From Nitrospirota bacterium (GTDB lineage: Bacteria; Nitrospirota; Thermodesulfovibrionia; Thermodesulfovibrionales; Dissulfurispiraceae): 24,000 nt of DNA. Within the stretch, counting starts at the first letter, position 1. Every line of letters starts with the position of its first letter. This document shows positions 1-17,973 of the stretch, piece by piece. The DNA lies in the NCBI GenBank assembly GCA_963790025.1, contig CAWBMP010000005.1, positions 271,508 to 295,507 of the forward strand, in the 5' to 3' direction. The notes under the pieces are model-generated. The model was not told the origin of the DNA. It did not search any database and saw only the letters and a program-made list of their open reading frames with translations. The position numbers and the translations under genes are program-made.

Positions 1-1169
1 CCTTCCCTGTCAATGGCCCATTCAATATCCTGAGGTTGCCGGAAATAGTTTTCAATTTCCGAGGCCTGTCTCGCAAGTTCCGATACCTGTTCCGAAGATA
101 ATGAACTTTCATCAACCATCCCGGCAGGGACCCCCGTTATGGTTGTACCACCCTGGTTGCCGCCCACGACCATCGAGGTCTTTTTACCCGGTCTTTTATC
201 TATTATTTCAGGGAACAAACCTTTTCTTACAACGTAAAAGTCCGCATCTGTCCGGCCTTCAACTACTGACGTGCCCAGTCCCCATGTTGAATTTACAATG
301 ATCGTACCTTCATCCCCATTCGGGTTCGTCGAATAAATAACCCCGCTCACAGCCGCATCGACCATGACCATGCAACCAACCGCCATCTTTATGCTTCCTA
401 TCTCACTTCCCAGTTGCTGAAGATATGCAGCGGCTTTATCCGAAAACAGGCTTGCGATGACGCGCTTATACGCGTCCTGTACTGCACTGCCGTCCAAAGG
501 CACATTCAGGACAGTTTCAAACTGTCCGGCAAACGAAAATTCGCCGTCCTCCAGCTGACCGCTGCTCCTGACAGCAAGAAAACATGTATTTCCGTGGGTC
601 GCCCTGAGCACTGACAGGGCACTATCAAGAACGTGTTCAAGGACAGGCGGAAAACTGCCGTTAATGATCGAAGTGTATATTTCATTTAATAACGGCGCAG
701 GCGTGTCGCTTCCGCCCAATGCCGAAATCTTTTTGTCGATGCCATTATGCCTTATAAACTCATTGTAAGCGGAGCATGTTATGGCAAAGGCATCAGGGAT
801 GTTGAGGGAAGTATTATTTTTCAGTTCAGCGAGATTGGCATTTTTGCCGCCGACCTCATGCGCCATGCTATGGGCAAGCTCACTATAAGGCAGCACCAAT
901 TCCCTTCTCAAGACTTCCTCATCGTAAACATGCAGCCTGATTTCTTTATCGATGGCACTCAATACATTTTTGAGATGAGGATACTTATTCTGTGTGAGGG
1001 CATTGAAGCTTGAGAGAGAATCCGAGAGCTTATCATACAGCAAGGAGTAGGTGTCCCTTATATAAATCACATCGAATATGTAGTCGCCCCCGAGTTTGTC
1101 GCCCATATCAGCGATAATCTCAATCGCCTTATTATGGGATTCGAGGACCTGCCGGAAACGGTCGAACAT
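1..1169 (-). CDS. PEP-utilising enzyme family protein (PEP synthase / pyruvate phosphate dikinase-like, N-terminal ATP-grasp PPDK_N domain). It is partial: the C-terminal part lies beyond the left edge of the window.
   Basis: It is absent from the ORF track because no stop codon falls inside the window. My manual reverse translation is open in one frame from 1277 down to base 1. It reads ...AHSMAHEVGGKNANLAELKNN..., ...VRSSGQLEDGEFSFAGQFETVLNV... and ...FRQPQDIEWAIDREG. These match the hallmark motifs of the PEP synthase/PPDK nucleotide-binding domain (GGKxAxLxE; VRSSxxxED...SFAGQxxTxLNV; DIEWA). In-frame ATGs lie at 1169 and 1277, with an in-frame TAA at 1278-1280. I could not decide between the two starts. 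Confidence 0.75.
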   Translation of the reverse strand, partial: MFDRFRQVLESHNKAIEIIADMGDKLGGDYIFDVIYIRDTYSLLYDKLSDSLSSFNALTQNKYPHLKNVLSAIDKEIRLHVYDEEVLRRELVLPYSELAHSMAHEVGGKNANLAELKNNTSLNIPDAFAITCSAYNEFIRHNGIDKKISALGGSDTPAPLLNEIYTSIINGSFPPVLEHVLDSALSVLRATHGNTCFLAVRSSGQLEDGEFSFAGQFETVLNVPLDGSAVQDAYKRVIASLFSDKAAAYLQQLGSEIGSIKMAVGCMVMVDAAVSGVIYSTNPNGDEGTIIVNSTWGLGTSVVEGRTDADFYVVRKGLFPEIIDKRPGKKTSMVVGGNQGGTTITGVPAGMVDESSLSSEQVSELARQASEIENYFRQPQDIEWAIDRE

Positions 1170-1273
1170 GACCTTGAACGGGATAGGGCGGGCGGGGAAT
1201 AGTTTCCGTAGTGAATCTGTAAATGAGTGTATTAGCGAATGAGTTAACTTCAGGTCAGCGTTTTGTTTCTCAC

Positions 1274-1330
1274 TCATTTACCCGTTCACCCATTTACCCG
1301 TTCACCCATTTACCCATTCACTCATTAACT
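1274..1330. repeat. Tandem direct repeat with a 16-bp period and about 3.5 units (plus-strand unit CATTTACCCGTTCACC).
   Basis: Read directly from the sequence: tcatttacccgttcac / ccatttacccgttcac / ccatttacccattcac / tcattaactcatc. It lies between the stop of the receiver gene (1333) and the PEP-utilising gene. Confidence 0.85.
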
Positions 1331-1332
1331 CA

Positions 1333-1695
1333 TCAGCTCAGGGCGCGCTGTATCGATGCCTTCAGTTCTTTTATCTTTACCGGCTTTGGGAAAAAATCGT
1401 GGACGTCTCCCCTCAATGCCTCTATGGCGGTATCAAGGTTTGCAAATGCAGTAATCATTATAACCTTAATGTCAGGGTAAAGACGTTTTATGGTCCTCAG
1501 AATTTCCATACCGTCTATCCCCTTCATTTTAAAGTCGGTAACTACCACATCGAACTTCTGTTCGCCTAATCGCGCCAGTGCCGGCTCTCCATTTAAAAAA
1601 GTCTCGACTGTATAGCCTTCCTGTTCAAGAGAGAGCTTCGCCATGTCGCCAACAATTTTCTCGTCATCGATAATCATGATTCTGTGATTGCTCAT
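1333..1695 (-). CDS. Stand-alone response regulator receiver protein (CheY-like, no output domain).
   Basis: 120 aa ORF. Receiver signature residues are present: IIDDE, VVVTDFKMKGIDG (phospho-acceptor Asp), MITAF and FPKPV (conserved Lys). A GAGGAGG Shine-Dalgarno site sits 5 nt upstream of the ATG. Confidence 0.92.
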   Translation of the reverse strand: MSNHRIMIIDDEKIVGDMAKLSLEQEGYTVETFLNGEPALARLGEQKFDVVVTDFKMKGIDGMEILRTIKRLYPDIKVIMITAFANLDTAIEALRGDVHDFFPKPVKIKELKASIQRALS

Positions 1696-1711
1696 TTGGT
1701 CCTCCTCTAAT

Positions 1712-1784
1712 GCGTCGAGCGTTGTGCTGAGAGCATCAAACGACTTTCGACGGCAGTTGGCGCTTAACGCTCAGCGCTCGACGC
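1712..1784 (-). promoter_or_regulatory. Long-range intercistronic stem between the 3' end of the kinase gene and the receiver ribosome-binding site.
   Basis: gcgtcgagcg (1712-1721) is the exact reverse complement of cgctcgacgc (1775-1784). ctgag (1727-1731) pairs with ctcag (1770-1774). That gives 10+5 bp with a small bulge. On the mRNA the 3' arm ends 4 nt before the receiver SD (1701-1707). Confidence 0.4.
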
Positions 1785-3182
1785 CTGACACTCTTTATGT
1801 ACAGGCAATTCTATAGTAAAGGTGGTGCCTACTCCAACTTTGCTTTCCACCCTGATATCTCCCTGATGGTTCTTGATGATTCCGTAGCTGACCGAGAGCC
1901 CGAGGCCTGTTCCGCCTTCTCCTTTTGTGCTGAAAAAAGGGTCGAATATATGAAGCAGAAATTCGGAAGGTATGCCTTTTCCGGTATCCATCACCGTAAT
2001 CTCCACGGACCCTCCGGCGCTTCCGCATCTGGTCGACATAAAAAGCTTCCCGCCATCATGCATGGCCTGGACTGCATTGGTCACAAGATTTACCAGCACC
2101 TGCTGTATCTGGTACTGATCAATAAATACATGTGGAAGGTCCTCGGCAAGGGTCAGTTTTGTCTCGATGTTTGAGATGTCGAGCATATTTTGCACAAGTT
2201 TGAGCGTTTTTTGAACAACTTTATTGATGTCGCTCTCTTTCAGGTTCGCCTCTTTGGGTTTTGAGAAATCGAGGAGGTTTTTTATGATCTCTTTTATCCT
2301 TTCGGTTTCATTCTCCACCTTGGCCATGAATTCAATCCTCTGAGTCTCATCCAGACTATCGTAAAGTTCCATATAGGTCTGTGCTATCATGGAAATGTTA
2401 TTCACCGGATTAGTCAATTCGTGTGCCACCCCGGCGGTCAGGATGCCCAGGGATGCAAGCTTTTTTGCCTGGATCAGCGCTTCTTCACGGTTCTGCAGTT
2501 CGTAAGACATGGCATTTATTGCAGCCATAACCAGACCGAATTCATCATCGGGAAGCGCACTCTCGATTCTGCTGAAATTCCCGTCGGATATCGATTTTGC
2601 GATTTTCTCGATTTCTCTTAGTGAGACGCGAATTTGCCGCGATATAAAATGGCTCACAAAAACAGCGCCTATAAGCACCGCGCAAAAAGAGAAAATAAGT
2701 ATGCTCTTCGATTTCGATATGATTTTGTTTACGCCTTCCCGCTCAAGGCGGGTAGTGGCGCTCGAAAATTCCCGCAGCCTCTGGCCTTCCGCCCTGAATT
2801 TTGCGTCAAGAGAGGTATCGCCATGAGGGTTTTTTTCCTCTTCTTCCACAAGATCGGAATAATTTTTCAGGTCTGATTTAAGCTTTGCAAAGTTCTCTGC
2901 CCCGATAGCACGGATGATATCCGGCCTCTCACTCTCCAGAAGCAGCCCGGCGCTCTCTATTTTTTCTTTAATGTCGAGAAGAAAACTTTCTTTATGATAA
3001 AGGAAATAGTTTTTTTCGGAAAGGCGCATTTCGAGAAAAGATGCATTCAGATCGTCCGCTATCTCAACAAATCTCAGCTTCGTCAAAATGAGATTGAGGT
3101 TCTGCAAGGCAAAAAGACCGATCCCTAAAATCAGCCCGAAAATGAATATATTGGTAAGTATGTTTTTATTTTTTATCTTCAT
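1764..3182 (-). CDS. Membrane sensor histidine kinase: 2 TM helices with a roughly 130 aa extracytoplasmic domain, then HAMP, HisKA and HATPase_c.
   Basis: 472 aa ORF. Hydrophobic segments are NIFIFGLILGIGLFAL and ILIFSFCAVLIGAVFV. The H-box is GVAHELTNPVNNI, the N-box VNLVTNAVQAM, G1 MDTGKGI, F FDPFFSTK and G2 GTGLGLSVS. Confidence 0.92.
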   Translation of the reverse strand: MKIKNKNILTNIFIFGLILGIGLFALQNLNLILTKLRFVEIADDLNASFLEMRLSEKNYFLYHKESFLLDIKEKIESAGLLLESERPDIIRAIGAENFAKLKSDLKNYSDLVEEEEKNPHGDTSLDAKFRAEGQRLREFSSATTRLEREGVNKIISKSKSILIFSFCAVLIGAVFVSHFISRQIRVSLREIEKIAKSISDGNFSRIESALPDDEFGLVMAAINAMSYELQNREEALIQAKKLASLGILTAGVAHELTNPVNNISMIAQTYMELYDSLDETQRIEFMAKVENETERIKEIIKNLLDFSKPKEANLKESDINKVVQKTLKLVQNMLDISNIETKLTLAEDLPHVFIDQYQIQQVLVNLVTNAVQAMHDGGKLFMSTRCGSAGGSVEITVMDTGKGIPSEFLLHIFDPFFSTKGEGGTGLGLSVSYGIIKNHQGDIRVESKVGVGTTFTIELPVHKECQASSAER

Positions 3183-3236
3183 ATCTTCGAAAAACCTCTA
3201 TCTTTCCCTCTGCCTGTCTTATCTCTTTTACCTGTC

Positions 3237-4442
3237 TTATTGTGGTACAGGGCAGCGTGGGATTTCTGCCTGCTCCTTTCTTACCGGCATATACCACAGC
3301 CAGCCGTCCACTATCATCAGTATACCTGCAGCAATTAAAAAAGCGTCGATGGCTGTCAGAATGCTGAAGCCGAAATAGTGCATGAGACCCAACCCCAGGC
3401 TGGCAAAGGAAACTCCGGTCCTGATAAAGGCGAGTCCGGTCCTCGCCCTGGCATATAAAGTACGATAGCATGCGGCAACTGTACGTTGTGCGGCCAGAAC
3501 GTTTCTTTCCCGCGCAAGATGGGTCCGTTCCCTGCTGGAAGGCGACGGATACAAAATAGTGCAGTGATCCGCAAGAAAATCGCCGAGACGGGCAAGCATA
3601 GTCTGCCCTGCCGGCAGATGAGTTCCGGGTTGGTCAATAAAATGATAGTTCTCAAGAAACTGGATCGTTGCCGCCGTTACTTCGACAAGCGTCTGGTCTC
3701 CGGGCGGCTTCATCCTTGACTTCCTTATTTTCAAATAACCGGTCAACCCGAAAAGAGCAAGAAAAAACCCTCCGGCCATAACACCATATAAATAAAAAAC
3801 ACGACTCGATTTAAAAGAACGAATCAGTATATCAGATACAGCAATAAGCCGCAATCCCCATCTGAGGAAAGAAAAGTCAGTCCTGGCCATTGCCAGGTCG
3901 GTCCTGTAGCACGCCAGCCGCGTCCTCCATTGCGCCATAGTATTGCGCCAAAATGCAAGTCCTGTCCTTTCGGTCCCGATAAGATAACCTGGTTTTTCAT
4001 GCAGAAAGTCCTGGATGAACCATTGTATGTCCTCTCCAAGCGCCACCCAGAATTCATATTTTTCAGCTTTAATAAACTTTTTTACCTCATCATGCACTGT
4101 GGGGTCTGACGGATTATTCGCAGCCACAACCACCGTATTGCCGTCTCTAATGATCGGAAACCACTGATTTATCGACAGTCGTTCACCATCCAAACCTGCG
4201 AGCAGTTCCGGCGGTATCGGCATTCGCTCATCATATTCCACAAAAGGGCACTGGTAATAATTTGAAAGTGCCTGCAGCAGAATATGCTTTGGGATGCGAT
4301 ACTCCGCGATAAGTACACTTTCCAGATCGATACCTCTGGCGGAAGCGGCACGCTCGGCTTCACAAAGTCTGTCCCGGGTCAGTACGCCCCAACTGATCAG
4401 GTCATTAAACTTATTGGAAGCGATACTATCAACGCTCATCAT
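3237..4442 (-). CDS. Membrane protein, paralogue 3: GspE-N/MshEN-like N-terminal domain plus 2 DUF202-type units.
   Basis: The ORF track gives 3237..4514. The other two paralogues begin MLxNKFERL, which aligns with MMSVDSIASNKFNDL, so I prefer the ATG at 4442 (or 4439). That start gives a 14-nt overlap with the stop of the upstream gene (ATGATGAGCGTTGA). Motifs: ...YYQCPFVEYDE..., ...WFPII..NNPSDPTV..., and two RT-heptad plus two-TM units (ERTGLAFWRNTMAQWRTRLACYRT...; ERTHLARERNVLAAQRTVAACYRTLYARARTGLAFIRTG...DGWLWYMPVRK). Confidence 0.8.
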   Translation of the reverse strand: MMSVDSIASNKFNDLISWGVLTRDRLCEAERAASARGIDLESVLIAEYRIPKHILLQALSNYYQCPFVEYDERMPIPPELLAGLDGERLSINQWFPIIRDGNTVVVAANNPSDPTVHDEVKKFIKAEKYEFWVALGEDIQWFIQDFLHEKPGYLIGTERTGLAFWRNTMAQWRTRLACYRTDLAMARTDFSFLRWGLRLIAVSDILIRSFKSSRVFYLYGVMAGGFFLALFGLTGYLKIRKSRMKPPGDQTLVEVTAATIQFLENYHFIDQPGTHLPAGQTMLARLGDFLADHCTILYPSPSSRERTHLARERNVLAAQRTVAACYRTLYARARTGLAFIRTGVSFASLGLGLMHYFGFSILTAIDAFLIAAGILMIVDGWLWYMPVRKEQAEIPRCPVPQ

Positions 4443-6135
4443 TACTGAAGACCACCTTTTTCCACGAACGGGCCGGTATGCCGTAATCAGGGATAATAAG
4501 CTCCATCTGTCCATAACAATACGGGTACTGCTTTCTTATTTTTTCTGCCGGAAAATGCCAGTAAAACCCATCGGCAATCAGTGTCAATCCAACCACTATC
4601 AGCAACATGTTAAATATAGACCATGCAGCATTGCCCGCACCAAAGAAAACCATGAGTTCCATGCCGACGGCAGTTATGCCTACTCCTGTTCTGATAAAAG
4701 CCAGTCCGGTCCTTGACCGTGCCATTACTGTCCGCAGTCGCGCCATCACATTTCTCCGGTCGGCGAGCATGGTCCTTTCGAGAGCAAGCCCTGTAGTAGC
4801 CCATATACCCGGTGCATGGGACGGCCTGACAGGCGGAACACACTTGTAATCCGAAGCGGGATGTTTTAACGCCGGAGGAAAAACAAAATCCCAAATAGTC
4901 TGTTTAGTCTGCGTATTCCTGACTGCATTAAAACTTATAGAACCGGCACGGCGGCCCGGGAGATACCAGTAAAAACCCTCTGCAGCCATGGCAATACCGC
5001 TAATAATAAGAGCGACATCAAAGAAAGTCCACGGTCCTGGACGGAACTGACGCAATAACCCAATACCGAATCCTATAAAGGCAACACCTGTCCTCGAAAA
5101 AGCCAATCCGGTGCGCGCCCTTGCCATTTTTGTTCTGTAGCATGCCAGCACAGTCCTCTCCTCGGCAAAGTCCGTTCTATCGCTGGCAAGGAACCTGCGT
5201 CTCATAACCGGGGAGAGGTTGTTCCAGTACGAACGCAGGACTGCCGCATCTTGCACATAGCCGGTACGTTCAAAGAGAGGATTGTCACCAGGATTCACGA
5301 CTTTAAGAACAGTGGTCCCCCATGTCGCTTCAGTACCTCCGAAATCATATAATTTTCTCCCTGATTTTCGGGTAGGGATATACCACCGCAGGCCGTCGAC
5401 GGTCATAACCACGCCTGAAATGAACAGTGCCGCTTCAAATACCGTTAATAGCCCTATACCTAAAATTCTGAAAAGCACGATAGCGACCGCCATAAAAGAT
5501 ATCCCGGTCCGGAGAAAGGCCAGTCCGGTCCTTCCTTTTGCCAGGGACGTTCTGGTACATGCCAGCAAAGAGCGCCTGTCCGCCAGAAATGTTCTCACTT
5601 TTGCAAGGGGCGTCCTGCCTGCCGCTGGGGGGAAATGAGGATTGACATCAAAGTTGTGTTCTATGATCCTTACAACGTCTGAAGGCAGAGCAATAACGAA
5701 ATGGATATTCTCAACTCGAAGTTTATCTTTAATGTCCTGAATTACATCAGGGTCGGAAGGATCATATACAATCACTTCGGCCTGCATTCCCCCGACGTAA
5801 TAGGGAAACCAGAGTTTGCGTTTCAGGTCCTCCATATTCAGACGCATGGTAATAAAATAGGAAGACAAGCCGCTCTCATCATATTCTATAAAAGGGAAAT
5901 CGAGATGCCTGGTGAATGCCATCCGGGAAGGTATCACAGTCTCGTCGTATTCGACAAAAGGACACATGTAAAATTCGGAAAGGCAGAACAATATCTCGTG
6001 TTTGGGAACTCCCTTTTCAATCAAACATTCCTCAGGATACTTTCCCGCAGCAAATGAATCCCTTATGCAGTTATCCAGTTCATTTTCGGTGAGGATGCCT
6101 CTTCTTATAAGCCGTTCAAATTTATTGTTTAACAT
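4429..6135 (-). CDS. Membrane protein, paralogue 2: GspE-N/MshEN-like N-terminal domain plus 3 DUF202-type units.
   Basis: 568 aa ORF. N-terminal motifs are KFERLIRRGILTENELD, GVPKHEILFCLSEFYMCPFVEYDE, WFP, DPSDPDV and ALPSDVVRIIEHNF. It then has three repeats of an (x-R-T-x-L-A-x)n ladder, each followed by two hydrophobic helices ending DGLRWYIPTRK / EGFYWYLPGRR / DGFYWHFPAEK. Confidence 0.87.
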   Translation of the reverse strand: MLNNKFERLIRRGILTENELDNCIRDSFAAGKYPEECLIEKGVPKHEILFCLSEFYMCPFVEYDETVIPSRMAFTRHLDFPFIEYDESGLSSYFITMRLNMEDLKRKLWFPYYVGGMQAEVIVYDPSDPDVIQDIKDKLRVENIHFVIALPSDVVRIIEHNFDVNPHFPPAAGRTPLAKVRTFLADRRSLLACTRTSLAKGRTGLAFLRTGISFMAVAIVLFRILGIGLLTVFEAALFISGVVMTVDGLRWYIPTRKSGRKLYDFGGTEATWGTTVLKVVNPGDNPLFERTGYVQDAAVLRSYWNNLSPVMRRRFLASDRTDFAEERTVLACYRTKMARARTGLAFSRTGVAFIGFGIGLLRQFRPGPWTFFDVALIISGIAMAAEGFYWYLPGRRAGSISFNAVRNTQTKQTIWDFVFPPALKHPASDYKCVPPVRPSHAPGIWATTGLALERTMLADRRNVMARLRTVMARSRTGLAFIRTGVGITAVGMELMVFFGAGNAAWSIFNMLLIVVGLTLIADGFYWHFPAEKIRKQYPYCYGQMELIIPDYGIPARSWKKVVFSNDER

Positions 6136-6223
6136 AGTATATAAAGCCCAGAAACTTCATTATTATAAATTATAGCCATATTAATAATAAAATTTTTTCT
6201 CTTCCGGGCAAGGCTCCATATTT

Positions 6224-7867
6224 TTAGCCGCTCTCATCGGTCCTGAACACCACCTTTTTCCATAAACGGGCCGGTTTGCCATAATCAGGTATTATAAGTT
6301 CCATGTCTCCATAGCAGTAGGGGTACTGCTTTCTTATTTTCTCGGCTGGGATGTGCCAATAGAAACCATCAGCAATAAGAGCCAATCCAACCACTATCAA
6401 TAATATGTTGAATATCGTCCACGCGATATTGCCGGCACCGAAATAAACAAGGAGTTCCGTTCCTACCGCAGATACGCCTACCCCGGTTCTGACCAGCGCC
6501 AGACCGGTCCTTGACCGGGTCATTACCGTTCGCAGCCTTAACATTACGTTTCTCCTGTCGGCAAGCATAGTCCTCTCAAGAGCAAGGCCCGTAGTAGCCC
6601 AGATCCCCGGCTCACTGGACGGCCTGACGTTCAGAACGCACTTGTAGTCAGAACCTGGTTGCTTTAGCGCATGAGGAAAGGCAAGGTCCCATATATTCTG
6701 TTTACCCTCTGATTTGCGGACCGACTTGAAGCTCATCGAACCGGCACGGCGGCCCGGAAAATACCAGTAAAAGCCCTCTGCCGCCATTGCGAGGCCCACA
6801 GCGACAAGCGCTGCATCAAAAAAAGTCCAGGGACCGGGACGGAACTGGCGTAATAGCGCAATGCCGAACCCGATAAAGACAATTCCAGTCCTTGCAAATG
6901 CCAACCCTGTGCGCGCCCTCGCCATTGTTGTCCATAAGCACACGTGCGTCGTCCTTTCCTCGGCAAAATCGGTCCTGTCGCTCGAAAAAAACCTGCGCCG
7001 CATTACCGGAGACAGATTGTTCCATCGGGAACGCAACAACGCCGCACCTTCCACGTGACCTGTTCGTGTAAAAAGAGGGTCGTCACCGGGGTCCGTCATT
7101 TTAAGGACAGTAGTTCCCCAAGTCGGTTCAGTTGCAGTAAAATCAAAAACTCTTCTCCCTGTTTTTCGTGCGGGGATATACCATAAAAGGCCGTCATAAA
7201 TCATGAGTATGCCCGAAATGAACAATGCCCCTTCAAAAAAAACCGAAAGCCCCATACCGAAAACCCTGAAAAGAACAACCGCGATGGCCATAAAAGCCAT
7301 ACCGGTGCGTATAAAGGCCAGTCCGGTCCTCCCTTTTGCCAGGGACGTCCTGGTACAAGTCATCAAAGAGCGCCTGTCAGCCAGAAATGTCCTCACTTTC
7401 GCCAGAGGCGTCCTGCCGGCTGAGAATGGGAAATGAGGATTCACATCAAAGTTGTGTTCGATAATCCGAATAAGGTCCGAAGGCAGAGCAACAATAAAAT
7501 TGACCTCCCGAACTCCAAGTGTGGCTTCGACATCCTCCATGACATCAGGGTCGAAAGGATGACACGCAATAACCTCGGCACGGCCTTTGCTGACGGCGAG
7601 AGGAAACCAGAGATTTCGTTTGAGTTTCTCCATATTGAGACGCCTGGTGAGAAAAAAAGAGGCGATGACGCTCTCATCATATTCGACAAAAGGACAACTA
7701 TAGAACTCAGTCAGCGAGAACAATATCTCGTGTTTCGGGACACCCCTTTCAATCAGCCATTCTTCAAGAAGCCTACCTGCCGCTGCGGACTCTCTGATAT
7801 TTTCATCCAATTCCTTTTCGGTGAGAATACCATTTTTTAAAAGTCTCTCGAATTTGTTTTTTAACAT
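6224..7867 (-). CDS. Membrane protein, paralogue 1: GspE-N/MshEN-like N-terminal domain plus 3 DUF202-type units.
   Basis: 547 aa ORF, collinear with and highly similar to paralogue 2 along its whole length. It has the same N-terminal motifs, the same three RT-ladder/two-TM units, and the same C-terminal tail KIRKQYPYCYGxMELIIPDYG. Confidence 0.87.
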   Translation of the reverse strand: MLKNKFERLLKNGILTEKELDENIRESAAAGRLLEEWLIERGVPKHEILFSLTEFYSCPFVEYDESVIASFFLTRRLNMEKLKRNLWFPLAVSKGRAEVIACHPFDPDVMEDVEATLGVREVNFIVALPSDLIRIIEHNFDVNPHFPFSAGRTPLAKVRTFLADRRSLMTCTRTSLAKGRTGLAFIRTGMAFMAIAVVLFRVFGMGLSVFFEGALFISGILMIYDGLLWYIPARKTGRRVFDFTATEPTWGTTVLKMTDPGDDPLFTRTGHVEGAALLRSRWNNLSPVMRRRFFSSDRTDFAEERTTHVCLWTTMARARTGLAFARTGIVFIGFGIALLRQFRPGPWTFFDAALVAVGLAMAAEGFYWYFPGRRAGSMSFKSVRKSEGKQNIWDLAFPHALKQPGSDYKCVLNVRPSSEPGIWATTGLALERTMLADRRNVMLRLRTVMTRSRTGLALVRTGVGVSAVGTELLVYFGAGNIAWTIFNILLIVVGLALIADGFYWHIPAEKIRKQYPYCYGDMELIIPDYGKPARLWKKVVFRTDESG

Positions 7868-7901
7868 AATAATTAATGATTAATGATAATTAATGCGTCA
7901 G

Positions 7902-7929
7902 GCAGCGCGCGTTGAATGTCGCGCGCTGC
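7902..7929. other. GC-rich perfect hairpin (10-bp stem, 8-nt loop) in the divergent intergenic region upstream of paralogue 1.
   Basis: gcagcgcgcg (7902-7911), loop ttgaatgt, then cgcgcgctgc (7920-7929). It is flanked on the gene side by AT-rich ATTAATGA-type repeats (7871-7895). Confidence 0.6.
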
Positions 7930-7996
7930 GGTACTTGACAACAACCTGTAATATGTTTTATACAAATTATATAGTTTAAGAGCTTAATAAAGAAAA

Positions 7997-8404
7997 TTGA
8001 TATATATGGATTTTAGCAAAAAACGTATTTTTTGTCTGCTTTTCCTCGCCTGCTTCATTATTTATGCGTTATCAACCGCTGTCTGTTATATTTACAGCGG
8101 CAAGACCGTTGTACCTGTTCCCCTTCCCTGCAGTTTTGCCAGGAAGTTTGTCGGCCATGGGACCGTCAATCCGTTTGAAAAAAACAACCGCGGCGTTGAC
8201 ATTATTGTGCACATTGTGCGAACTCTTGTTCCGGAAGACAGCATTGCAAAATTATCGTATTTAAAAAAGACACCTGTGTCCAAAAGCTGTTTTTCGATGC
8301 GTTCAATGCAGTCTTCTTTTTATTCTGGAATTTCACCATTTGGGAAAGTCCCGGCCACCGGTTTCCGGTTCTTATGTTCGGGACTCTCTCCTCCATCAGT
8401 TTAG
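7997..8404 (+). CDS. Hypothetical small protein with an N-terminal hydrophobic segment. This is a weak call.
   Basis: It is the only ORF over 100 aa in the 7868-8562 gap. It has an N-terminal hydrophobic stretch (IFCLLFLACFIIYALSTAV). I recognise no motif and see no clear SD. A TTGACA (7935-7940) lies upstream. Confidence 0.25.
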   Translation: MIYMDFSKKRIFCLLFLACFIIYALSTAVCYIYSGKTVVPVPLPCSFARKFVGHGTVNPFEKNNRGVDIIVHIVRTLVPEDSIAKLSYLKKTPVSKSCFSMRSMQSSFYSGISPFGKVPATGFRFLCSGLSPPSV

Positions 8405-8562
8405 TTTTCCTTTCGAAAACATTTATGCCTGCATAGTCTGATCCCCGAACGGAGTGGGATCGGTCTTTGCTCTTTCAGCGTTGAAAAAACGACAATCCGT
8501 GTCCTTGTTGAAAGAAATGACACTGTCCGACTTTTCACATGGGCACTTAAAGAGGAGGTAAT

Positions 8563-10026
8563 ATGTGCAGATCAAAAAAAGATATGACTAAGATGTGTCC
8601 GACTGTGCTTGTCGTATGGGCGACCGTTGCGGCGGTCCTGTGTTTTCAGGTGAATACATACGCGGACGGACCGGCAATATCGCGGCAATCCATTGACTTG
8701 CTTTCGAGAGAGAGCCATGCCAGGGCGGAAGTGGCCGCTGCCGTGAAGCCCGCAGTTGTGAATGTCTCGACTACGAAGACCGTGAAATCGGGGCAGACGA
8801 TCAATCCTTTTCTGAACGACCCATTCTTCAGACAGTTCTTCGGCAACGGGCCTTTCGAGCATCCAAAGGAGCACAAGCAGGCGAGTCTCGGCTCGGGCGT
8901 CATTGTGGATGCCGACGGATATATATTGACGAATAATCATGTGATAAAGGACGCTGACCAGATAAAAATAAAACTTGCGGATAAGCGGGAATTCAACGGC
9001 AGGGTCATAGGGACTGACCCTAAAACCGACCTTGCCGTGGTCAAGATTAATGCGACGCATCTTCCTTTCCTGAAGTGGGGTGACTCGGACAAACTGGAGG
9101 TTGGCGATACCGTACTGGCAGTCGGCAATCCTTACGGTCTGAACCAGACGGTAACGTCCGGGATTGTCAGCGCGACGGGCAGGGCCAATGTCGGCATAGC
9201 TGATTACGAAGACTTCATACAGACAGACGCGCCTATTAATCCCGGGAATTCAGGGGGCGCTCTGGTCAATGTGAGGGGCGAACTCGTCGGGATCAACACC
9301 GCCATATTCAGTACATCCGGCGGCTACCAGGGGATTGGATTTGCGATCCCGGGAAGCATGGCAAAAGTAGTGATGAGAGGTCTGATCAGGAACGGAAAGA
9401 TTGTCAGGGGATGGTTGGGTGTCTCCATTCAGGCTGTTACCCCTGAACTGGCCGGGCAGTTCGGACTTAAGGATGAAAAAGGCGCGCTCGTAGCTGATAT
9501 TGCAGAGAAAAGCCCGGCAGAAATGGCTGGAATTAAGCGGGCGGACTTGATCATTAAATATGACGGGAAAGAGGTGAGCGACCCGTCGAACCTGAGAAAT
9601 ATGGTTGCAAGCACTCCCCCGAACAAAGACGTTGCGATACAGCTTATCCGGGCAGGCAAGGTCCTGACGGTGAGGGCCGTGATTCTTGAGATGCCGGCTG
9701 AGATGCAAAAACCCTTGCAGTCATCCTCTGCTGCGTCCAATAACGTTTTCAAAGGAGTCCAGGTACAGGATATCACGCCTGAATTAAGGAAGGAGCTTAA
9801 TATCCCGAACCGGATAACCGGCGTAATCGTCTCGGACGCGCAAGAAGGAAGCCTTGCGGGAAATGTCCTGATGCGCAAAGATATCATCCTTGAAATCAAC
9901 AGGAACAGGATAGAGAGCGTCAGGGATTACGAGGCAATGGCATCGAAGATCGAACACGGCCGGAATGTTCTCTTACTGGTTTACAGGAACGGGTCAACTT
10001 TTTATGTTGCCTTGCCTGCAAAATAA
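8563..10026 (+). CDS. htrA: Periplasmic serine endoprotease of the HtrA/DegP/DegQ family (trypsin-like domain plus two PDZ domains).
   Basis: 487 aa ORF with a signal-like N-terminus. The catalytic triad contexts are TNNHVI, DLAVVKI and GNSGGALVN. Two PDZ-like regions follow (GWLGVSIQ...; GVQVQDITPEL...). AGGAGG lies 6 nt upstream of the ATG at 8563. Confidence 0.94.
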   Translation: MCRSKKDMTKMCPTVLVVWATVAAVLCFQVNTYADGPAISRQSIDLLSRESHARAEVAAAVKPAVVNVSTTKTVKSGQTINPFLNDPFFRQFFGNGPFEHPKEHKQASLGSGVIVDADGYILTNNHVIKDADQIKIKLADKREFNGRVIGTDPKTDLAVVKINATHLPFLKWGDSDKLEVGDTVLAVGNPYGLNQTVTSGIVSATGRANVGIADYEDFIQTDAPINPGNSGGALVNVRGELVGINTAIFSTSGGYQGIGFAIPGSMAKVVMRGLIRNGKIVRGWLGVSIQAVTPELAGQFGLKDEKGALVADIAEKSPAEMAGIKRADLIIKYDGKEVSDPSNLRNMVASTPPNKDVAIQLIRAGKVLTVRAVILEMPAEMQKPLQSSSAASNNVFKGVQVQDITPELRKELNIPNRITGVIVSDAQEGSLAGNVLMRKDIILEINRNRIESVRDYEAMASKIEHGRNVLLLVYRNGSTFYVALPAK

Positions 10027-10068
10027 CATAGGATATTGCAGCACTTATCGTGTTTACGGCCCAAATCC

Positions 10069-10104
10069 TCCTCGCTCCTTTCCTCATTTAAGGGGGAGCG
10101 AGGA
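10069..10104 (+). terminator. Hairpin downstream of htrA. It is a candidate terminator but lacks an adjacent U-tract.
   Basis: tcctcgctcc (10069-10078) pairs with ggagcgagga (10095-10104), giving a 10-bp stem and a 16-nt loop. The nearest T-run starts about 20 nt further downstream, so this is not a canonical intrinsic terminator. Confidence 0.35.
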
Positions 10105-10197
10105 TGGGTTGTGGATGAAGTTTTTTAAAAAGCGCGGTAAAATATATTAAGAAGTTGCGAATATTTGAAACGTATATATGTTTGAGGCTGCAAGATA

Positions 10198-11751
10198 ATG
10201 AAAGATAACTTTAGTTTTTTGCGGGCAAATCTTTCCTCAAGTCCGAACTTGAAATGGTTCATTTTATCAACCGTCCTGATGGGCGCTGCCATGTCGGCCC
10301 TGGATGTAAGCATCGTTAACATAGCAATGCCCACCCTGAAAACCACTTTTAACGTATCAATGGCGGTAATAGAGTGGATAGCTATCGCTTACACGCTTGC
10401 GCTGACTGTTTTCCTGCCTCTGTTTGGCAGGCTGGCTGACATGTTCGGCAGGTCAAAACTCTATAACATCGGTTTTGTAGTCTTTTCAGCTGGTTCTTTA
10501 CTCTGCGGAATGTCACCCACCGCGAGCTTTATGATAGCATCCCGGGTCATCCAGGCAATAGGGGCAGGACTTCTACAGGCCAACTCTGTTGCACTTATCA
10601 CGCATGCCTTTCCAGCCTACGAGCGGGGCAGGGCAATCGGCATTCAGGGAGCTGTTCAGGCAATTTCAATGGCTTTGGGTCCGTTTGTAGGGGGCATTCT
10701 GATAGCAACAGTGGGCTGGCGCGCCATTTTCTATATAAATATTCCGATTGGTTTGCTTGGTACCATGGCGGCCCTACTGGTCTTGCCTGCTGACCAGCCG
10801 ATCAAAGAGAAGCAGAAGATAGATTATCCGGGGGCCGTTTTTTTTGCCTCCGGGCTTGCTCTGCTGATGCTGGCTCTCAACGAGGCCGTCAGACTTGGCT
10901 GGACCTCGCACACTATTATTACATACTTCTTTTCCGGCATCATTTTATTTTTCCTTTTCGTCATTACTGAGTTGAAGGTTGAGCAGCCGCTGATCAATCT
11001 CGGTCTCTTCAGGCATCCCACTTTTCTCATAGGGAACCTGACAGGCATGCTGTCCTATTTCGTATTGTTCACCGTTTTGTTCCTGATGCCCTTTTATTTG
11101 GAAAAGGTATTGGGTTTCAACGCCGTTCTCACCGGCAGTCTGCTAACCCCTATTCCGCTTGCCATGATGGTGGTGGCCCCATTCTCCGGTCATATTTCCG
11201 ATAAATATGGGCCGAGGATAATGACTACAACGGGGATGTTCATATCGGCCCTTGCCTGCCTGTCGCTTGTATTCACCGGGCAATCGGTCAGCATGCCTCT
11301 GCTGATAGCCGAATTGATATGCCTCGGAATCGGAATAGGATTGTTCACGCCGTCGAACAACAGCGCCATAATGAGCTCGGCCCCTAAAGATAAATGGGGT
11401 GTGGCCGGCGGTCTTCTGAACATGATGCGCTCCCTGGGACTTATCCTGGGAGTGAACATCTCCGGTCTCATATTTACCTCAATGGAGCACCGCTATCTGG
11501 CAGAAAAAGGATACCCTAACGTGCAGCACGTGTTCAGCAATAGCAGCATTCCTTTGCTGATTAAAGACAATGCCTTCATGCACGGTTTCATCTTCGTCAT
11601 GGTAGTTCTTCTTCTCCTCAATCTCTTTTCGCTCTTCTTTGCGGCGACTAACAAGAACTGGGTTGTGCTCGTTCGGAAGCGGGCTGTGTTGCAAAGTAAA
11701 AGGGATAAGTGGAGGAGACATAAAACAGGCCGACCCGACATAGAGGAATAG
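10198..11751 (+). CDS. MFS transporter, DHA2 (EmrB/QacA-like, 14-TMS) drug:H+ antiporter family.
   Basis: 517 aa ORF that is hydrophobic throughout, with many predicted TM helices. MFS motif A is present (GRLADMFGRSK). The layout is typical of DHA2, including ALDVSIVNIAMPT near the N-terminus. Confidence 0.9.
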   Translation: MKDNFSFLRANLSSSPNLKWFILSTVLMGAAMSALDVSIVNIAMPTLKTTFNVSMAVIEWIAIAYTLALTVFLPLFGRLADMFGRSKLYNIGFVVFSAGSLLCGMSPTASFMIASRVIQAIGAGLLQANSVALITHAFPAYERGRAIGIQGAVQAISMALGPFVGGILIATVGWRAIFYINIPIGLLGTMAALLVLPADQPIKEKQKIDYPGAVFFASGLALLMLALNEAVRLGWTSHTIITYFFSGIILFFLFVITELKVEQPLINLGLFRHPTFLIGNLTGMLSYFVLFTVLFLMPFYLEKVLGFNAVLTGSLLTPIPLAMMVVAPFSGHISDKYGPRIMTTTGMFISALACLSLVFTGQSVSMPLLIAELICLGIGIGLFTPSNNSAIMSSAPKDKWGVAGGLLNMMRSLGLILGVNISGLIFTSMEHRYLAEKGYPNVQHVFSNSSIPLLIKDNAFMHGFIFVMVVLLLLNLFSLFFAATNKNWVVLVRKRAVLQSKRDKWRRHKTGRPDIEE

Positions 11752-11817: not shown

Positions 11818-11867
11818 GATCTGACACACCGGCAACTTTACACGGACACTTGAGTTTTAGGAATGCC

Positions 11868-12587
11868 ATGAAGATAGCATGCAGAACAGATAAAGGCAGA
11901 AAGCGCGAGATGAACCAGGATATGGTATTGGCAGACACGGAAAGAGGGCTGGTCCTTCTTGCCGACGGTATAGGGGGTTGCCATATTGGAGGTGAGGTGG
12001 CCAGTGAACTTGCAGTAAAAGAGGCCTATGCCTATCTCGAAGACAAGGTTGATCATACTCCATGTGAGACTGCAGACCCTGTGCTTCTTTCTGAAGCAGT
12101 TGTCCATGCACACAAGATTATACGGGAAAAAGCCCGGTCGGAAAAGGAATGCGCAGGCATGGGGACAACTCTTGTCATCCTGCTGATGAGGGGCAGAACG
12201 GCATACATCTGCCACGTCGGCGACAGCCGCGCTTATGTTATACGACAAAAAATATGTCAGATTACGGAGGACCAGACCTTCCAGAATTCCATTGATGAGG
12301 ACCCGATAATCCGCAGTCTGTTCTTCCGGAAAAAGGCCCGTACACTTATGCAGGCAGTGGGGATATCGGGAGATCTGACTCCGGAATCGGTCCAGGTGGA
12401 ACTCAAGTGTGGAGCTGTTCTTCTTCTCTGTTCCGACGGGCTTACGGATATGCTCTCCGATCAGGAGATTTTGGGGATCATTCACAGCAACAACTTTGAT
12501 CCCGACGCATCCGCGGACGCTCTTGTCTCTGAAGCAAATGAAAAGGGCGGTATTGACAACATCACCGTTGCACTGGTCTCGCTATAG
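11868..12587 (+). CDS. PP2C-family Ser/Thr protein phosphatase (Stp/PrpC-like).
   Basis: Motifs: RTDKGRKREMNQD, LLADGIGG, LLLCSDGLTD and GGIDNITV. The ORF track starts at a TTG (11850). I prefer the ATG at 11868, which has AGGA 6 nt upstream. Confidence 0.88.
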   Translation: MKIACRTDKGRKREMNQDMVLADTERGLVLLADGIGGCHIGGEVASELAVKEAYAYLEDKVDHTPCETADPVLLSEAVVHAHKIIREKARSEKECAGMGTTLVILLMRGRTAYICHVGDSRAYVIRQKICQITEDQTFQNSIDEDPIIRSLFFRKKARTLMQAVGISGDLTPESVQVELKCGAVLLLCSDGLTDMLSDQEILGIIHSNNFDPDASADALVSEANEKGGIDNITVALVSL

Positions 12588-12598
12588 GACAAGGTTGA

Positions 12599-15049
12599 AT
12601 GACTGATAAAATAGATATTCCTGTAACCGGCATGACCTGTGCTGCCTGTGCCGCTGCTATAGAAAGGACCTTGCCTCGCATCAACGGTGTAAAAACAGCG
12701 GCTGTAAATTTTCCGGCCGAAAGGGCCACTGTTGAATTTACCGACCAAAAGGAACCCGTTCCTCTGCAGGTCATCATTGAAGCCATAAAGGGCGAAGGAT
12801 ATGGGGTTGCGTCGGTAAAAATGAATTTCGCAGTCAGGGGAATGACCTGTGCTGCATGCGTCGGAGCCGTTGAAAGCGCACTGAAGGCACTTTACGGCGT
12901 TTTGAATGTTTCGGTAAACCTTGCGGCTGAAAAGGCTGCTGTTGAATATATACCTACTATCGTCGGGTTCGAGGAATTTAAACGTGTTGTCAAAGAAGCG
13001 GGATATGCTGCAGAACAGCTGACCGATGAGTTTGTCGACACTGAACGCGAGCGCAGGGAAAGGGAATACCTGACGCTGCGCAAGCAATTTATTATCAGCG
13101 CTGCAATGACCGTACCTATTTTCATCGGCAATATGCTGTCTGTTCCATTGCTTTCAAGCTGGTATCTGCTCTTTGCTCTTGCAACGCCGGTCCAATTCTG
13201 GAGCGGCATGCGCTTCCACCGTGCGGCCTTGTCTGCCCTAAAACACGGCACGACAAATATGAATACACTTATCAGTGTCGGGACCAATGCCGCATTTATT
13301 TACAGCTCAGTGGCAACCTTTGCACCGGGATTGTTTATTGCAGGAGGCGTAGCCCCACAGGTATATTTTGATACCTCCGCTGCCATAATAACGCTGATCC
13401 TTCTCGGCAGGCTGCTCGAAGCAAGGGCAAAAGGGAAGACCTCGGAGGCCATAAGGAAACTAATGGGACTTCAGGCAAAGACCGCTGCTGTTGTGCGTGA
13501 CGGTGAGGAGGTCGAGATTTTGATCGAGGAACTGGCAGCCGGCGACATAGTGGTGGTCAGACCGGGTGGCAGGATACCGGTGGATGGGACAGTGGTAAGC
13601 GGCTATTCGACAGTTGATGAATCCATGCTTACCGGGGAAAGCCTGCCCGTAGATAAAATAGAGGGAGACAACGTATTCAGCGGTACAGTGAACAAGGCAG
13701 GCAGTTTCAGGCTCCGGGCGCTGAAAATAGGCAAGGAGACGATGCTTGCGCAGATTATAAGGCTCGTGGAAGCTGCGCAGGGGAGCAAGGCGCCGATCCA
13801 GCGGCTCGCAGACAAGATTGCTTCGATCTTTGTCCCCGTTGTTATCAGCATCGCTGCCCTTACTTTCATAATATGGCTTATTGCGGGACCGGCCCCGTCA
13901 TTTACGCTTGCCTTGATGAATTTCATAGCGGTGCTGATTATCGCGTGCCCCTGCTCGTTGGGACTTGCTACGCCTACGGCAATCATGGTCGGTACAGGCA
14001 AAGGGGCTGAAAACGGCATACTGATAAGGGACGCCCAGGCATTGGAATTGTCCCATAAAATCGGGGTCGTTATAATGGATAAAACTGGTACTATCACAAA
14101 AGGAGAGCCTGAAGTACTGGATATTGCTGCTGCGGTAGGCATGTCGCCTGATGCTGTCCTCAAGATTGCCGCAGCGGCGGAAAAACTGTCTGAACATCCT
14201 CTCGGCAAGGCAATAGTAAAGAAGGCTGTTGAAAAGGGTTTGGTTATGGCCGCTCCCCTGGATTTTACGGCCTCGCCTGGTGGCGGCATAAGGGCAAAAG
14301 TCCTGGATGACGGAAGGGAAAAAGAGGTTTTTATCGGCAATGAGAGAATGCTCCGTAATGAGGGCATCGACTTAAGTCCTGTTATGGATATGGCCCGTCA
14401 TACTGCATCCGGGGGCAGGACTCCGGTTTTCATTGCTGCTGATAAAAATGTGATTGGCGTTATCTCAATAGCCGATGCGATTAAGGAAGGGTCGTCAGAT
14501 GCCATAAAGGATTTACAGTCTATGCGTATAGAGGTTATAATGATAACTGGCGATCATCTGGGCACGGCAGAAGCAATAGCAAAGGAAGTCGGGATTAAAA
14601 CATTCTTTGCCGATGTGCTGCCGGGGGAGAAAGTCGAAATCGTAAAGAGAATAAAGTCCGGTGGAAAAGTAACAGCTATGGTCGGAGACGGGATTAATGA
14701 TGCACCTGCGCTGGCTGAAGCCGATGTTGGTATTGCTATAGGCACCGGCACTGATATCGCAATCGAAGCCTCCGGTCTGACCCTGATTAAAGGGGACCTG
14801 AAAAGCGTAGCGGACGCCATAAGGTTGAGCAAACTTACCATCAGGACCATAAAGCAGAACCTTTTCTGGGCTTTTTTTTACAATGCCGTCGGCATTCCAA
14901 TTGCCGCAGGGGTGCTCTACCCGTTTGGAGGCCCGTTGCTTAATCCTATGTTTGCATCAGCAGCAATGGCGTTCAGTTCTGTTTCCGTAGTAAGCAACTC
15001 TTTGCGGCTGCGGGGAAAGAATCTGCAGAAAAGTTTTCCGGAGGACTGA
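12599..15049 (+). CDS. copA: Copper-translocating P1B-type ATPase with two N-terminal heavy-metal-associated domains.
   Basis: 816 aa ORF. It has two GMTCAAC metal-binding motifs, TGES, the transmembrane CPC motif ([11 protein letters not shown]), DKTGTIT, SEHP, MITGD and [10 protein letters not shown]. Confidence 0.96.
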
Positions 15050-17880: not shown

Positions 17881-17973
17881 CTTCTGACGGAAACTTCCTA
17901 TCCAAAAGCAGCGTCGGCATCTCCCGACAGTATCAACAGGCGGCTGGAAGAGATCAAAGGAGTTGCTGCCGTT

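Follow-up and report, generated by a model that had tools for sequence, protein, structure and literature searches.

Among the known systems nearest to the one described here is the yeast VTC complex, whose Vtc subunits are assigned to the Pfam family DUF202 (PMC7283521, PMC12388464) and which cryo-electron microscopy resolves as a 3:1:1 pentamer with a pore formed by the five first helices; the basic residues K24 and R31 line this channel, with R31 at its narrowest point (PMC9911596). A second body of work concerns the MshEN receptors of cyclic di-GMP (c-di-GMP), which carry two 24-residue motifs of the form RLGxx(L/V/I)(L/V/I)xxG(L/V/I)(L/V/I)xxxxLxxxLxxQ (PMC12002112, PMC5013675). Here we analyse a 24,000-nucleotide (nt) window, by which we mean the whole stretch of DNA under study, from contig CAWBMP010000005.1 of a Nitrospirota bacterium. 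The left part of this window holds a cluster of six genes, all on the minus strand, that encode three membrane paralogues with MshEN and DUF202 domains (par1, par2 and par3), a sensor histidine kinase, a receiver-only response regulator and a dikinase-type phosphotransferase.

The components at the centre of this cluster are both of known kinds, a putative DUF202/VTC-type pore and a dikinase of the pyruvate phosphate dikinase (PPDK) type, and what is new is their combination. We propose that the cluster encodes, in one conserved operon, a dikinase under two-component control that would be coupled to an anion-conducting, VTC-like DUF202 pore, a proposition for which we consider the chances evenly balanced.

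A six-gene cluster conserved in Nitrospirota

The order of the six genes (Table 1), their shared strand and the length of each junction are exactly as an initial annotation, made from the sequence without database searches, had given them: 88 nt between par1 and par2, a 14-nt overlap of par2 with par3, and then 54, 68 and either 55 or 163 nt down to the dikinase gene. A scan for terminator-like sites placed none in any of the five junctions, as that annotation had also held, and every match on the minus strand lay inside coding sequence. With co-directional genes, short junctions (-14 to 88 nt) and no internal terminators, the six genes are confirmed, as far as sequence can do so, as an operon-like unit and are predicted to form a single transcription unit. 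The two values for the last junction correspond to two candidate starts of the dikinase gene, at 1277 (55 nt) and at a second ATG at 1169 (163 nt), of which the former appears the better choice because the N-terminal extension aligns with homologues and because the database protein P0241 begins there. For par3, the longest open reading frame (ORF) starts at 4514, and the preferred start, which gives 401 amino acids (aa), agrees with how par1 and par2 begin and with the call for this gene on a second contig, L001. The sequence GAGGAGG stands six bases 5' of the receiver ATG.

Relatives were scanned with one genome per species, which gave 80 loci with a relative of a paralogue; ORFs were called in these loci and compared with the proteins of the window. 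All but a few of the loci, which are labelled Deltaproteobacteria or Desulfocapsaceae, belong to Nitrospirota (Thermodesulfovibrionales, Dissulfurispiraceae, "Ca. Sulfobium"). In every locus scanned, a long paralogue gene is followed directly by a short one. Synteny beyond this pair was counted in the 53 genomes with at least 5.5 kb of sequence 3' of the short paralogue: in 44 of them the kinase, receiver and dikinase genes follow in the same order and on the same strand, two more have a degraded kinase, two lack the dikinase only, and five lack all three. The long paralogues of these genomes share only 52-83% identity with those of the window. Across the 46 complete loci, the median junctions are -14 nt (long to short, at most 31 nt in all 46), +18.5 nt (short to kinase), -4 nt (kinase to receiver) and about -17 nt (receiver to dikinase), and the median identities to the window proteins are 58% for the long paralogue, 65% for the short one, 65% for the kinase, 84% for the receiver and 52% for the dikinase. 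The initial annotation had made its reading of these genes as one cluster depend on conservation of their order in related genomes, and since the order is kept in 44-46 of 53 genomes, the objection that it had foreseen falls away. These comparisons point to a predicted operon that is conserved across Nitrospirota (Thermodesulfovibrionia, Dissulfurispiraceae) and has not been described previously; a literature search yielded no paper combining MshEN and DUF202, the other matches to "DUF202" being prefix matches to DUF2023 and similar.

The number of long paralogues is where the window departs from its relatives. par1 and par2 are 74% identical; par3, which is without the third repeat, has 34% identity to par1. 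A hidden Markov model of the DUF202 module counted three modules in every one of the 79 long proteins and two in every one of the 77 short ones; the combination is (3,2) at 69 loci, and the (3,3,2) pattern is confined to the closest relatives of the window. The three membrane paralogues of the initial annotation are therefore present in the window but lineage-specific, other genomes having one long and one short gene, and we reject three paralogues as the ancestral state. By these counts that state was one three-module and one two-module gene, and the third paralogue is a recent duplication of the long gene. Of the two long copies, par2 is the nearer to the single long gene of other genomes, which has its best match in par2 for 64 ORFs and in par1 for 19.

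Table 1. Coordinates, within the window, of the cluster genes and of the other features discussed in the text
Feature	Position	Strand	Remarks
par1	6224-7867	minus	547 aa; lineage-specific duplicate of par2
par1 DUF202 module 1	7157-7414	minus	aa 152-237; six RTxLAxx heptads, helices A and B
par1 DUF202 module 2	6707-7009	minus	aa 287-387; ladder
par1 DUF202 module 3	6326-6592	minus	aa 426-514; ladder
par2	4429-6135	minus	568 aa; long membrane protein with par1-like architecture
par3	3237-4442	minus	401 aa; short membrane protein, MshEN/GSPII-like domain and two DUF202 modules
Sensor histidine kinase	1764-3182	minus	472 aa; HAMP-HisKA-HATPase_c
Receiver-only response regulator	1333-1695	minus	120 aa; Response_reg alone
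Dikinase, first 425 codons of 866 aa	1-1277	minus	continues past the left edge of the window
Tandem 8-nt repeat TGRGTRAA (coding strand)	1270-1333		about 7-8 copies; fills the interval from receiver stop to dikinase start
Upstream non-coding region of the cluster	7868-7996		repeats and GC inverted repeat
DHA2-family MFS efflux permease	10198-11751	plus	TIGR00711, 285 bits against a cut-off of 230

DUF202 modules and the comparison with the VTC channel

In Pfam searches, the paralogues resolve into an MshEN domain and a DUF202 (PF02656) membrane domain, a family that the initial annotation had not recognised. DUF202 is matched by par1 at 35.2 bits and by par2 at 56.5 bits against a gathering threshold of 23.4; par3 falls slightly under it at 20.9 bits, although both of its modules can be aligned to the par1 and par2 modules. 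The family is marked by an (E/D)RT motif at the start of the first membrane helix and by a second membrane helix after it; each module here has RT motifs and two helices, in the register of Vtc1 E30-R31-T32. Every module also begins with a ladder of arginines in five or six RTxLAxx heptads, which the initial annotation had likewise missed. In module 1 of par1 the ladder consists of R152, R159, R166, R173, R180 and R187 and runs straight into helix A (R201), which is followed by helix B (E212, D225); in module 2 it consists of R291, R298, R305, (312), R319 and R326, and in module 3 of R432, R439, R446, R453 and R460. Position 312 is bracketed since par1, like its P0003 orthologue, has tryptophan in place of R312, with the loss of one ladder arginine, while par3 has six ladder arginines in each of its two modules. 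In an alignment of 80 sequences the ladder arginines, spaced seven apart, are invariant or nearly so, and conservation extends to the charged residues within the membrane helices (R201, E212 and D225 in module 1 and the corresponding positions of the others). The AlphaFold2 model of par1 (pLDDT 82.5, pTM 0.75) builds each ladder and first membrane helix as one continuous helix of 51-55 residues, the two helices of module 1 spanning residues 152-203 and 208-237 at a pLDDT of about 90. Since each continuous ladder helix has a second membrane helix after it, the N-terminal domain and every linker would lie in the cytoplasm.

Two smaller features of the paralogues were noted alongside. par2 has a 22-residue insertion (aa 66-87) in which the conserved CPFVEYDE motif recurs as FPFIEYDE; par1 and par3 lack this internal micro-duplication. 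The C-terminal tail of par1 (aa 515-547, window 6227-6323) is conserved, cytoplasmic and modelled with low confidence; its residues P516, Y517, C518, E523, P527, Y529, G530, W536 and F541 are invariant in the long proteins, the C-terminus of par3 keeps P516, C518 and P527, and the tail could be a docking motif.

The family assignment allows these modules to be compared with VTC (Vtc1/Vtc3/Vtc4; PDB 7ytj, 8i6v) residue by residue. Yeast Vtc1, taken from PDB 8i6v, matches DUF202 with E = 1.9e-17, its aa 24-85 falling on model positions 1-67, and par1 aa 173-221 fall on model positions 1-53, so that in the Pfam register par1 R173 and R180 correspond to Vtc1 K24 and R31. Both systems thus have a DUF202 membrane domain with basic residues seven apart, in the same register, on a first helix that lines the pore in VTC and would do so here. 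In addition, both place the channel beside an ATP-dependent phosphoryl-transfer enzyme, and both have alternative subunits, Vtc2 or Vtc3 in yeast and par1 or par2 here. The invariant count of 3 + 2 = 5 modules, encoded by overlapping long and short genes, fits a pseudo-pentamer, and we infer that the long (three-module) and short (two-module) proteins would assemble into a five-module, VTC-type pore, which would match the five membrane units that yeast divides 3:1:1. Each module would give one long helix, first the cytoplasmic RTxLAxx heptads and then a pore-lining membrane helix, and the five helices together would make a long, strongly positive conduit for an anion or a linear polyanion. A mechanistic analogy can be drawn with CorA-type pentameric funnel channels, in which each of five units has two membrane helices, a long stalk helix continuous with the pore helix and a cytoplasmic alpha/beta domain before it. 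No sequence relationship to these channels was detected or is claimed, and the charge is opposite, a cation channel there against putative arginine rings here.

The cluster also differs from VTC in several respects. It is without the TTM/CYTH polymerase and SPX domains: Pfam searches found no CYTH/TTM domain in the six proteins, the rest of the window or the recurrent neighbours, and no SPX match among the cluster and window proteins. Its enzyme is instead of the PPDK/phosphoenolpyruvate (PEP) synthase type, with a phosphohistidine. The modules are concatenated in two chains, and the ladder is lengthened to five or six arginines that extend about 35 residues into the cytoplasm. Regulation would be by a two-component pair and not by inositol pyrophosphates, and polyphosphate enters here only by inference. 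Among bacterial proteins, E. coli YidH belongs to the same Pfam family (JGI calls homologues "uncharacterized membrane protein YidH (DUF202 family)"), but it consists of one module of about 115 aa and lacks a cytoplasmic domain, whereas the modules here are duplicated or triplicated, fused to a GSPII domain and extended in their ladders.

A number of results weigh against a VTC-like pore coupled to the dikinase. An hhalign comparison of the module profile with Vtc1 gave the same register but was not significant (E = 0.04, probability 1.3%), a Foldseek search of the PDB with the whole par1 model retrieved MshEN-type folds and then poor ABC-transporter matches, with no VTC chain in the top 50, and the profile of a single DUF202 module did not retrieve the VTC chains from PDB sequences. 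The link to VTC is accordingly one of common Pfam membership and register and not of structure comparison. The modules have two membrane helices against three per VTC subunit, and the ladders could alternatively lie on the membrane surface and bind anionic lipids. No PPK, PPX or TTM/CYTH genes are found among the recurrent neighbours of the cluster. Our literature search found no demonstrated function for bacterial DUF202 proteins, YidH being merely an unconfirmed candidate from an overexpression screen (PMC10299036). Finally, seven of the 53 genomes have the DUF202 pair but no dikinase (five of them have no kinase or receiver either), and at three loci, L082, L083 and L084, the dikinase family is present and DUF202 is not; the coupling is therefore not obligatory.

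This last point feeds the strongest alternative, according to which two independent modules lie side by side, the kinase, receiver and dikinase forming a self-contained stress or metabolic circuit and the DUF202 pair a separate small-solute or ion channel. We consider this possible, if on the unlikely side. At L083 a distant dikinase has Usp, TauE, a 4HB kinase, a sigma-54 regulator and a receiver around it, the dikinase at L082 has neither this setting nor that of L084 (described below), and the DUF202 pair stands alone in five genomes and with only the kinase and receiver in two; an MFS or small membrane gene sometimes separates the short paralogue from the kinase as well. However, the order is kept in 83-87% of genomes at 52-83% protein identity, with a median short-kinase gap of 18.5 nt, and the trio adjoins membrane proteins in other lineages too, so that a membrane partner looks like part of its logic. 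At L084, outside the clade, the order is kinase, TauE, Alph_Pro_TM, a dikinase-receiver fusion (3119-6082) and a further receiver, with no DUF202. The kinase of this locus is orthologous to that of the window, with 34% identity that includes the sensor region and its EKNYFLY motif, and its membrane set includes a member of the TauE/SafE anion-exporter family. L084 and L083 place components of the trio with other membrane proteins, which makes kinase, receiver and dikinase an older unit that travels in the company of membrane proteins, and the DUF202 pair its partner in Nitrospirota.

The two-component pair, the dikinase and the N-terminal domains

In the coupled system that we favour, an extracytoplasmic cue would act on the kinase, the kinase would phosphorylate the receiver, and the receiver would control the dikinase through direct contact. 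The kinase consists of a membrane segment, an extracytoplasmic helical region of about 130 aa, a second membrane segment, HAMP, HisKA (H254, within AHELTNP) and HATPase_c, and since two hydrophobic segments, as read from the sequence, flank the 130 residues, a periplasmic sensor is plausible. The receiver matches Pfam Response_reg at 101.6 bits with no other domain and, as read from its sequence, keeps D10, D11, D54, T82 and K104. The pair therefore has what is expected of a two-component system, namely an H-box histidine and ATPase domain in the one protein, and an acid pocket, phospho-acceptor aspartate, threonine and lysine in the other. Their genes are adjacent, with a median junction of -4 nt in 46 loci, and phosphotransfer from this kinase to this receiver is putative. 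The receiver is the most conserved protein of the cluster (84% median identity against 52-65% for the other four) and is unusually strongly constrained. An exact look-up of the receiver protein returned no record, while that of the kinase led to the 5.9-kb contig L001, which extends the dikinase.

The full-length dikinase, the recovery of which the initial annotation had recommended, was obtained from L001 and P0241, the latter being 100% identical to the L001 query over 811 residues. Homology searches with a 389-aa fragment gave only truncated proteins, and the 811-aa sequence was used instead. The complete enzyme of 866 aa has a four-helix N-terminal extension (aa 1-120), a PPDK_N ATP-grasp domain (PF01326, 258.6 bits), a swivel domain with His525 (PF00391, PEP-utilisers mobile domain, 58.6 bits) and a C-terminal domain (aa 575-866), the last two encoded outside the edge of the window. 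S524-H525-M526 is invariant in 68 sequences, and the assignment of this gene to the enzymes that work through a phosphohistidine swivel domain, made before any database search, proved correct. In its ATP-grasp domain and its swivel domain with the T-S-H motif, the protein resembles PEP synthase, PPDK and rifampin phosphotransferase ("X, water dikinase"), its domain order being that of PEP synthase, and Foldseek with the full model matched these three through the N-terminal ATP-grasp and swivel domains only. In place of the PEP/pyruvate TIM barrel, however, the dikinase has a mixed alpha/beta domain of about 290 aa, and the four-helix extension is likewise extra. Pfam found no PF02896 TIM barrel in the protein, and the secondary structure predicted for aa 575-866 does not correspond to a (beta/alpha)8 barrel. 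Models of PEP synthase cover only model positions 4-472 of 798, and P0241 scores 311 against the cut-off of 740 for TIGR01418 and 317 against 598 for NF005057. The C-terminal domain itself has no Pfam match, and its profile has no meaningful sequence match in the PDB; it contains many invariant arginines and lysines together with an invariant set of His, Asp and Cys. A profile search for this domain among 1.84 billion representatives returned 1304 clusters, nearly all with the same architecture of about 850 residues.

In a few relatives of the dikinase (P0406, P0390, P0420), a receiver domain 37-40% identical to that of the window is fused C-terminally. Because these relatives carry the receiver fused to the new C-terminal domain, the window's receiver can be tied to the enzyme, and the fusions support direct receiver-dikinase coupling in the predicted operon. 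They also lend weight to the view of the initial annotation that a receiver with no output domain must act on a protein partner. With the receiver in control, a phosphate from ATP would pass to His525 of the dikinase and then to an acceptor held by the basic C-terminal domain, and this acceptor would be linked to the anion, possibly polyphosphate, conducted by the DUF202 pore.

Two other arrangements were seen among the relatives of the enzyme. P0452 and P0488 have a lectin-like C-terminal domain instead of the fused receiver, and tandem dikinase paralogues occur at L028 (15191-20474) and L065 (4944-10227), with 46-47% and 32-33% identity to the window enzyme and another kinase after them.

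The acceptor could also be a protein, a version that we regard as improbable. The dikinase would then phosphorylate the receiver aspartate, acting as an alternative phosphodonor driven by ATP, or else threonines within the RT heptads, which would neutralise the ladder and gate the pore. The receivers of the relatives are fused right after the C-terminal domain, L084 has a second, free receiver, and nearly all ladder arginines have a threonine after them, which at several positions is invariant; enzymes of this family, moreover, phosphorylate hydroxyls of varied acceptors, rifampin being one of a wider range. On the other hand, we know of no protein-phosphorylating member of the PPDK/PEP synthase family, the cluster already has a dedicated histidine kinase for its receiver, and the threonine of the ERT motif is found in Vtc1 as well (E30-R31-T32) and may be merely structural.

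For the N-terminal domains, the initial annotation had suggested a putative nucleotide-second-messenger domain, and the fold is indeed that of MshEN/GSPII. MshEN (PF05157) scores 44.3, 31.2 and 44.2 bits in par1, par2 and par3 against a threshold of 23.1, and the domain occupies aa 1-145 of par1. The best Foldseek matches are 8pdk, 5htl and 7lkm, with target-normalised TM-scores of 0.62-0.75 and a probability of 1.00 for 8pdk and 5htl, and the best structural matches are the c-di-GMP-bound PilF GSPII-B and MshE. These matches, and a receiver-HD-type protein encoded at 15049-16167 in the same window, would suit a c-di-GMP-gated membrane transporter, in which transport or the export of a polymer would be gated by c-di-GMP bound to the MshEN domains. 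The residues that make the contacts are gone, however: in 80 family members R1, G3 and Q24 are replaced in both motifs while the hydrophobic scaffold is retained, motif I having K/N-K-F for R-L-G and S for Q, and motif II having Y-P-E for R-L-G and Y for Q. Neither motif fits the relaxed pattern of PMC5013675, and the NCBIfam model of the motif scores 17.8 against a cut-off of 38. PilF GSPII-A shows that much slighter deviations are enough to abolish binding, and the same study stresses the position-3 glycine (PMC12002112). Because these residues are replaced in both motifs, canonical c-di-GMP binding is unlikely. We reject a canonical receptor, and consider c-di-GMP gating of a transporter very improbable. 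A role in docking or gating, comparable to that in the PilB-PilZ complex, is more plausible by analogy, and the coupled system would employ these cytoplasmic domains, their c-di-GMP binding probably lost, in that way. They share fold and Pfam family with the GSPII domains of MshE, PilB and PilF but are fused to a membrane domain and not to a secretion ATPase, and with their c-di-GMP contacts replaced they stand nearer to the non-binding PilF GSPII-A or to partner-binding N-domains (PilB-PilZ, GspE-GspL) than to a nucleotide receptor. More generally, an MshEN match should not be equated with c-di-GMP binding before the motifs have been inspected.

The labels of homologues ("phosphoenolpyruvate synthase" or "pyruvate, water dikinase") and PEP synthase models as the best NCBIfam matches would suggest a conventional PEP synthase gene (ppsA) at the end of a cluster that is no more than a chance housekeeping neighbourhood, a possibility that the initial annotation had itself raised; but with those matches partial and far under their cut-offs, PF02896 absent, a distinct conserved domain in the C-terminal 290 residues and the neighbours conserved, we reject it as having a negligible chance.

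Genomic surroundings and significance

Most other Nitrospirota (L008-L081) have a conserved co-directional block about 4 kb upstream of the long paralogue, missing from this window, that comprises an NtrC-type kinase and regulator, a 166-aa family (F9) that Pfam does not match, TauE/SafE, Alph_Pro_TM, a tandem Usp and a single Usp. In about 12 other loci the DHA2 MFS gene recurs, either flanking the cluster or inserted into it after the short paralogue and before the kinase; a small membrane protein of about 190 aa, likewise unmatched in Pfam, often comes next. The plus-strand genes at 11850-20720 encode a PP2C phosphatase, a P-type ATPase with two HMA domains, a receiver-HD protein (HD_5), RNase J, FtsK and LolA; apart from scattered weak matches of 24-49% identity, none of them is kept next to the cluster in the relatives.

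Upstream of the cluster, the stretch 7868-8562 is the most AT-rich nearby (GC 0.43), with divergent genes opposite. The AT-rich, divergent boundary described by the initial annotation thus stands, and promoter-like matches there are no commoner than in shuffled sequence. No sigma-54 promoter element was found upstream of par1, and no Rfam match was found in 1-10300 at E up to 1. Just 5' of the par1 start, TAATGAT occurs three times at 7867-7887, and a perfect 10-bp, GC-only inverted repeat nearby (7902-7911 / 7920-7929, with an 8-nt loop) could be an operator or a hairpin of the 5' untranslated region. A divergent 135-aa ORF at 7997-8404, with a TTG start and no Pfam match, has its only relative within the 80 loci at L003, in the same position and with 43% identity. 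Inside the cluster, the TGRGTRAA repeat has a period of 8/16 by TRF with 92% matches, and the receiver-dikinase junctions of relatives are shorter.

Taken as a whole, the overall interpretation of the initial annotation is partly supported, and the "transport, polymer export or envelope remodelling" that it suggested is a reasonable direction. The farthest-reaching form of the coupled system would be a bacterial machine for making and translocating polyphosphate or another phospho-polyanion, with an evolutionary origin separate from PPK and from the VTC catalytic subunit. In it, a receiver-activated dikinase would form phosphoanhydride bonds through its phosphohistidine, and a pseudo-pentameric DUF202 pore with about 29 heptad-spaced arginines would guide the chain across the cytoplasmic membrane. 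PPDK-type chemistry makes pyrophosphate from orthophosphate, i.e., it can form phosphoanhydride bonds, and this chemistry together with the VTC homology is what makes the polyphosphate version attractive, although we judge it quite unlikely as a whole.

DUF202 proteins are widespread in bacteria, and the sole understood member of the family is the pore of the eukaryotic VTC polyphosphate channel. The operon provides a concrete, conserved bacterial context for the family, with a fixed 3+2 module count, a ladder in the VTC register and a dedicated phosphotransferase that would be under two-component control, and it turns DUF202 from an "unknown membrane protein" into a testable hypothesis of anion or polyanion transport. 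The analysis also delimits, within the PEP synthase/PPDK superfamily, a large branch that has gone unannotated and is misnamed PEP synthase in databases; it comprises about 1300 clusters (at 50% identity) and has a new acceptor domain and, occasionally, a fused receiver. Going by source names, homologues of the long paralogue and of the dikinase are both present in a cultured relative, Dissulfurispira thermophila, which makes experiments feasible. If the polyphosphate machine were to prove true, the VTC channel domain would be an ancient polyanion conduit common to bacteria and eukaryotes.

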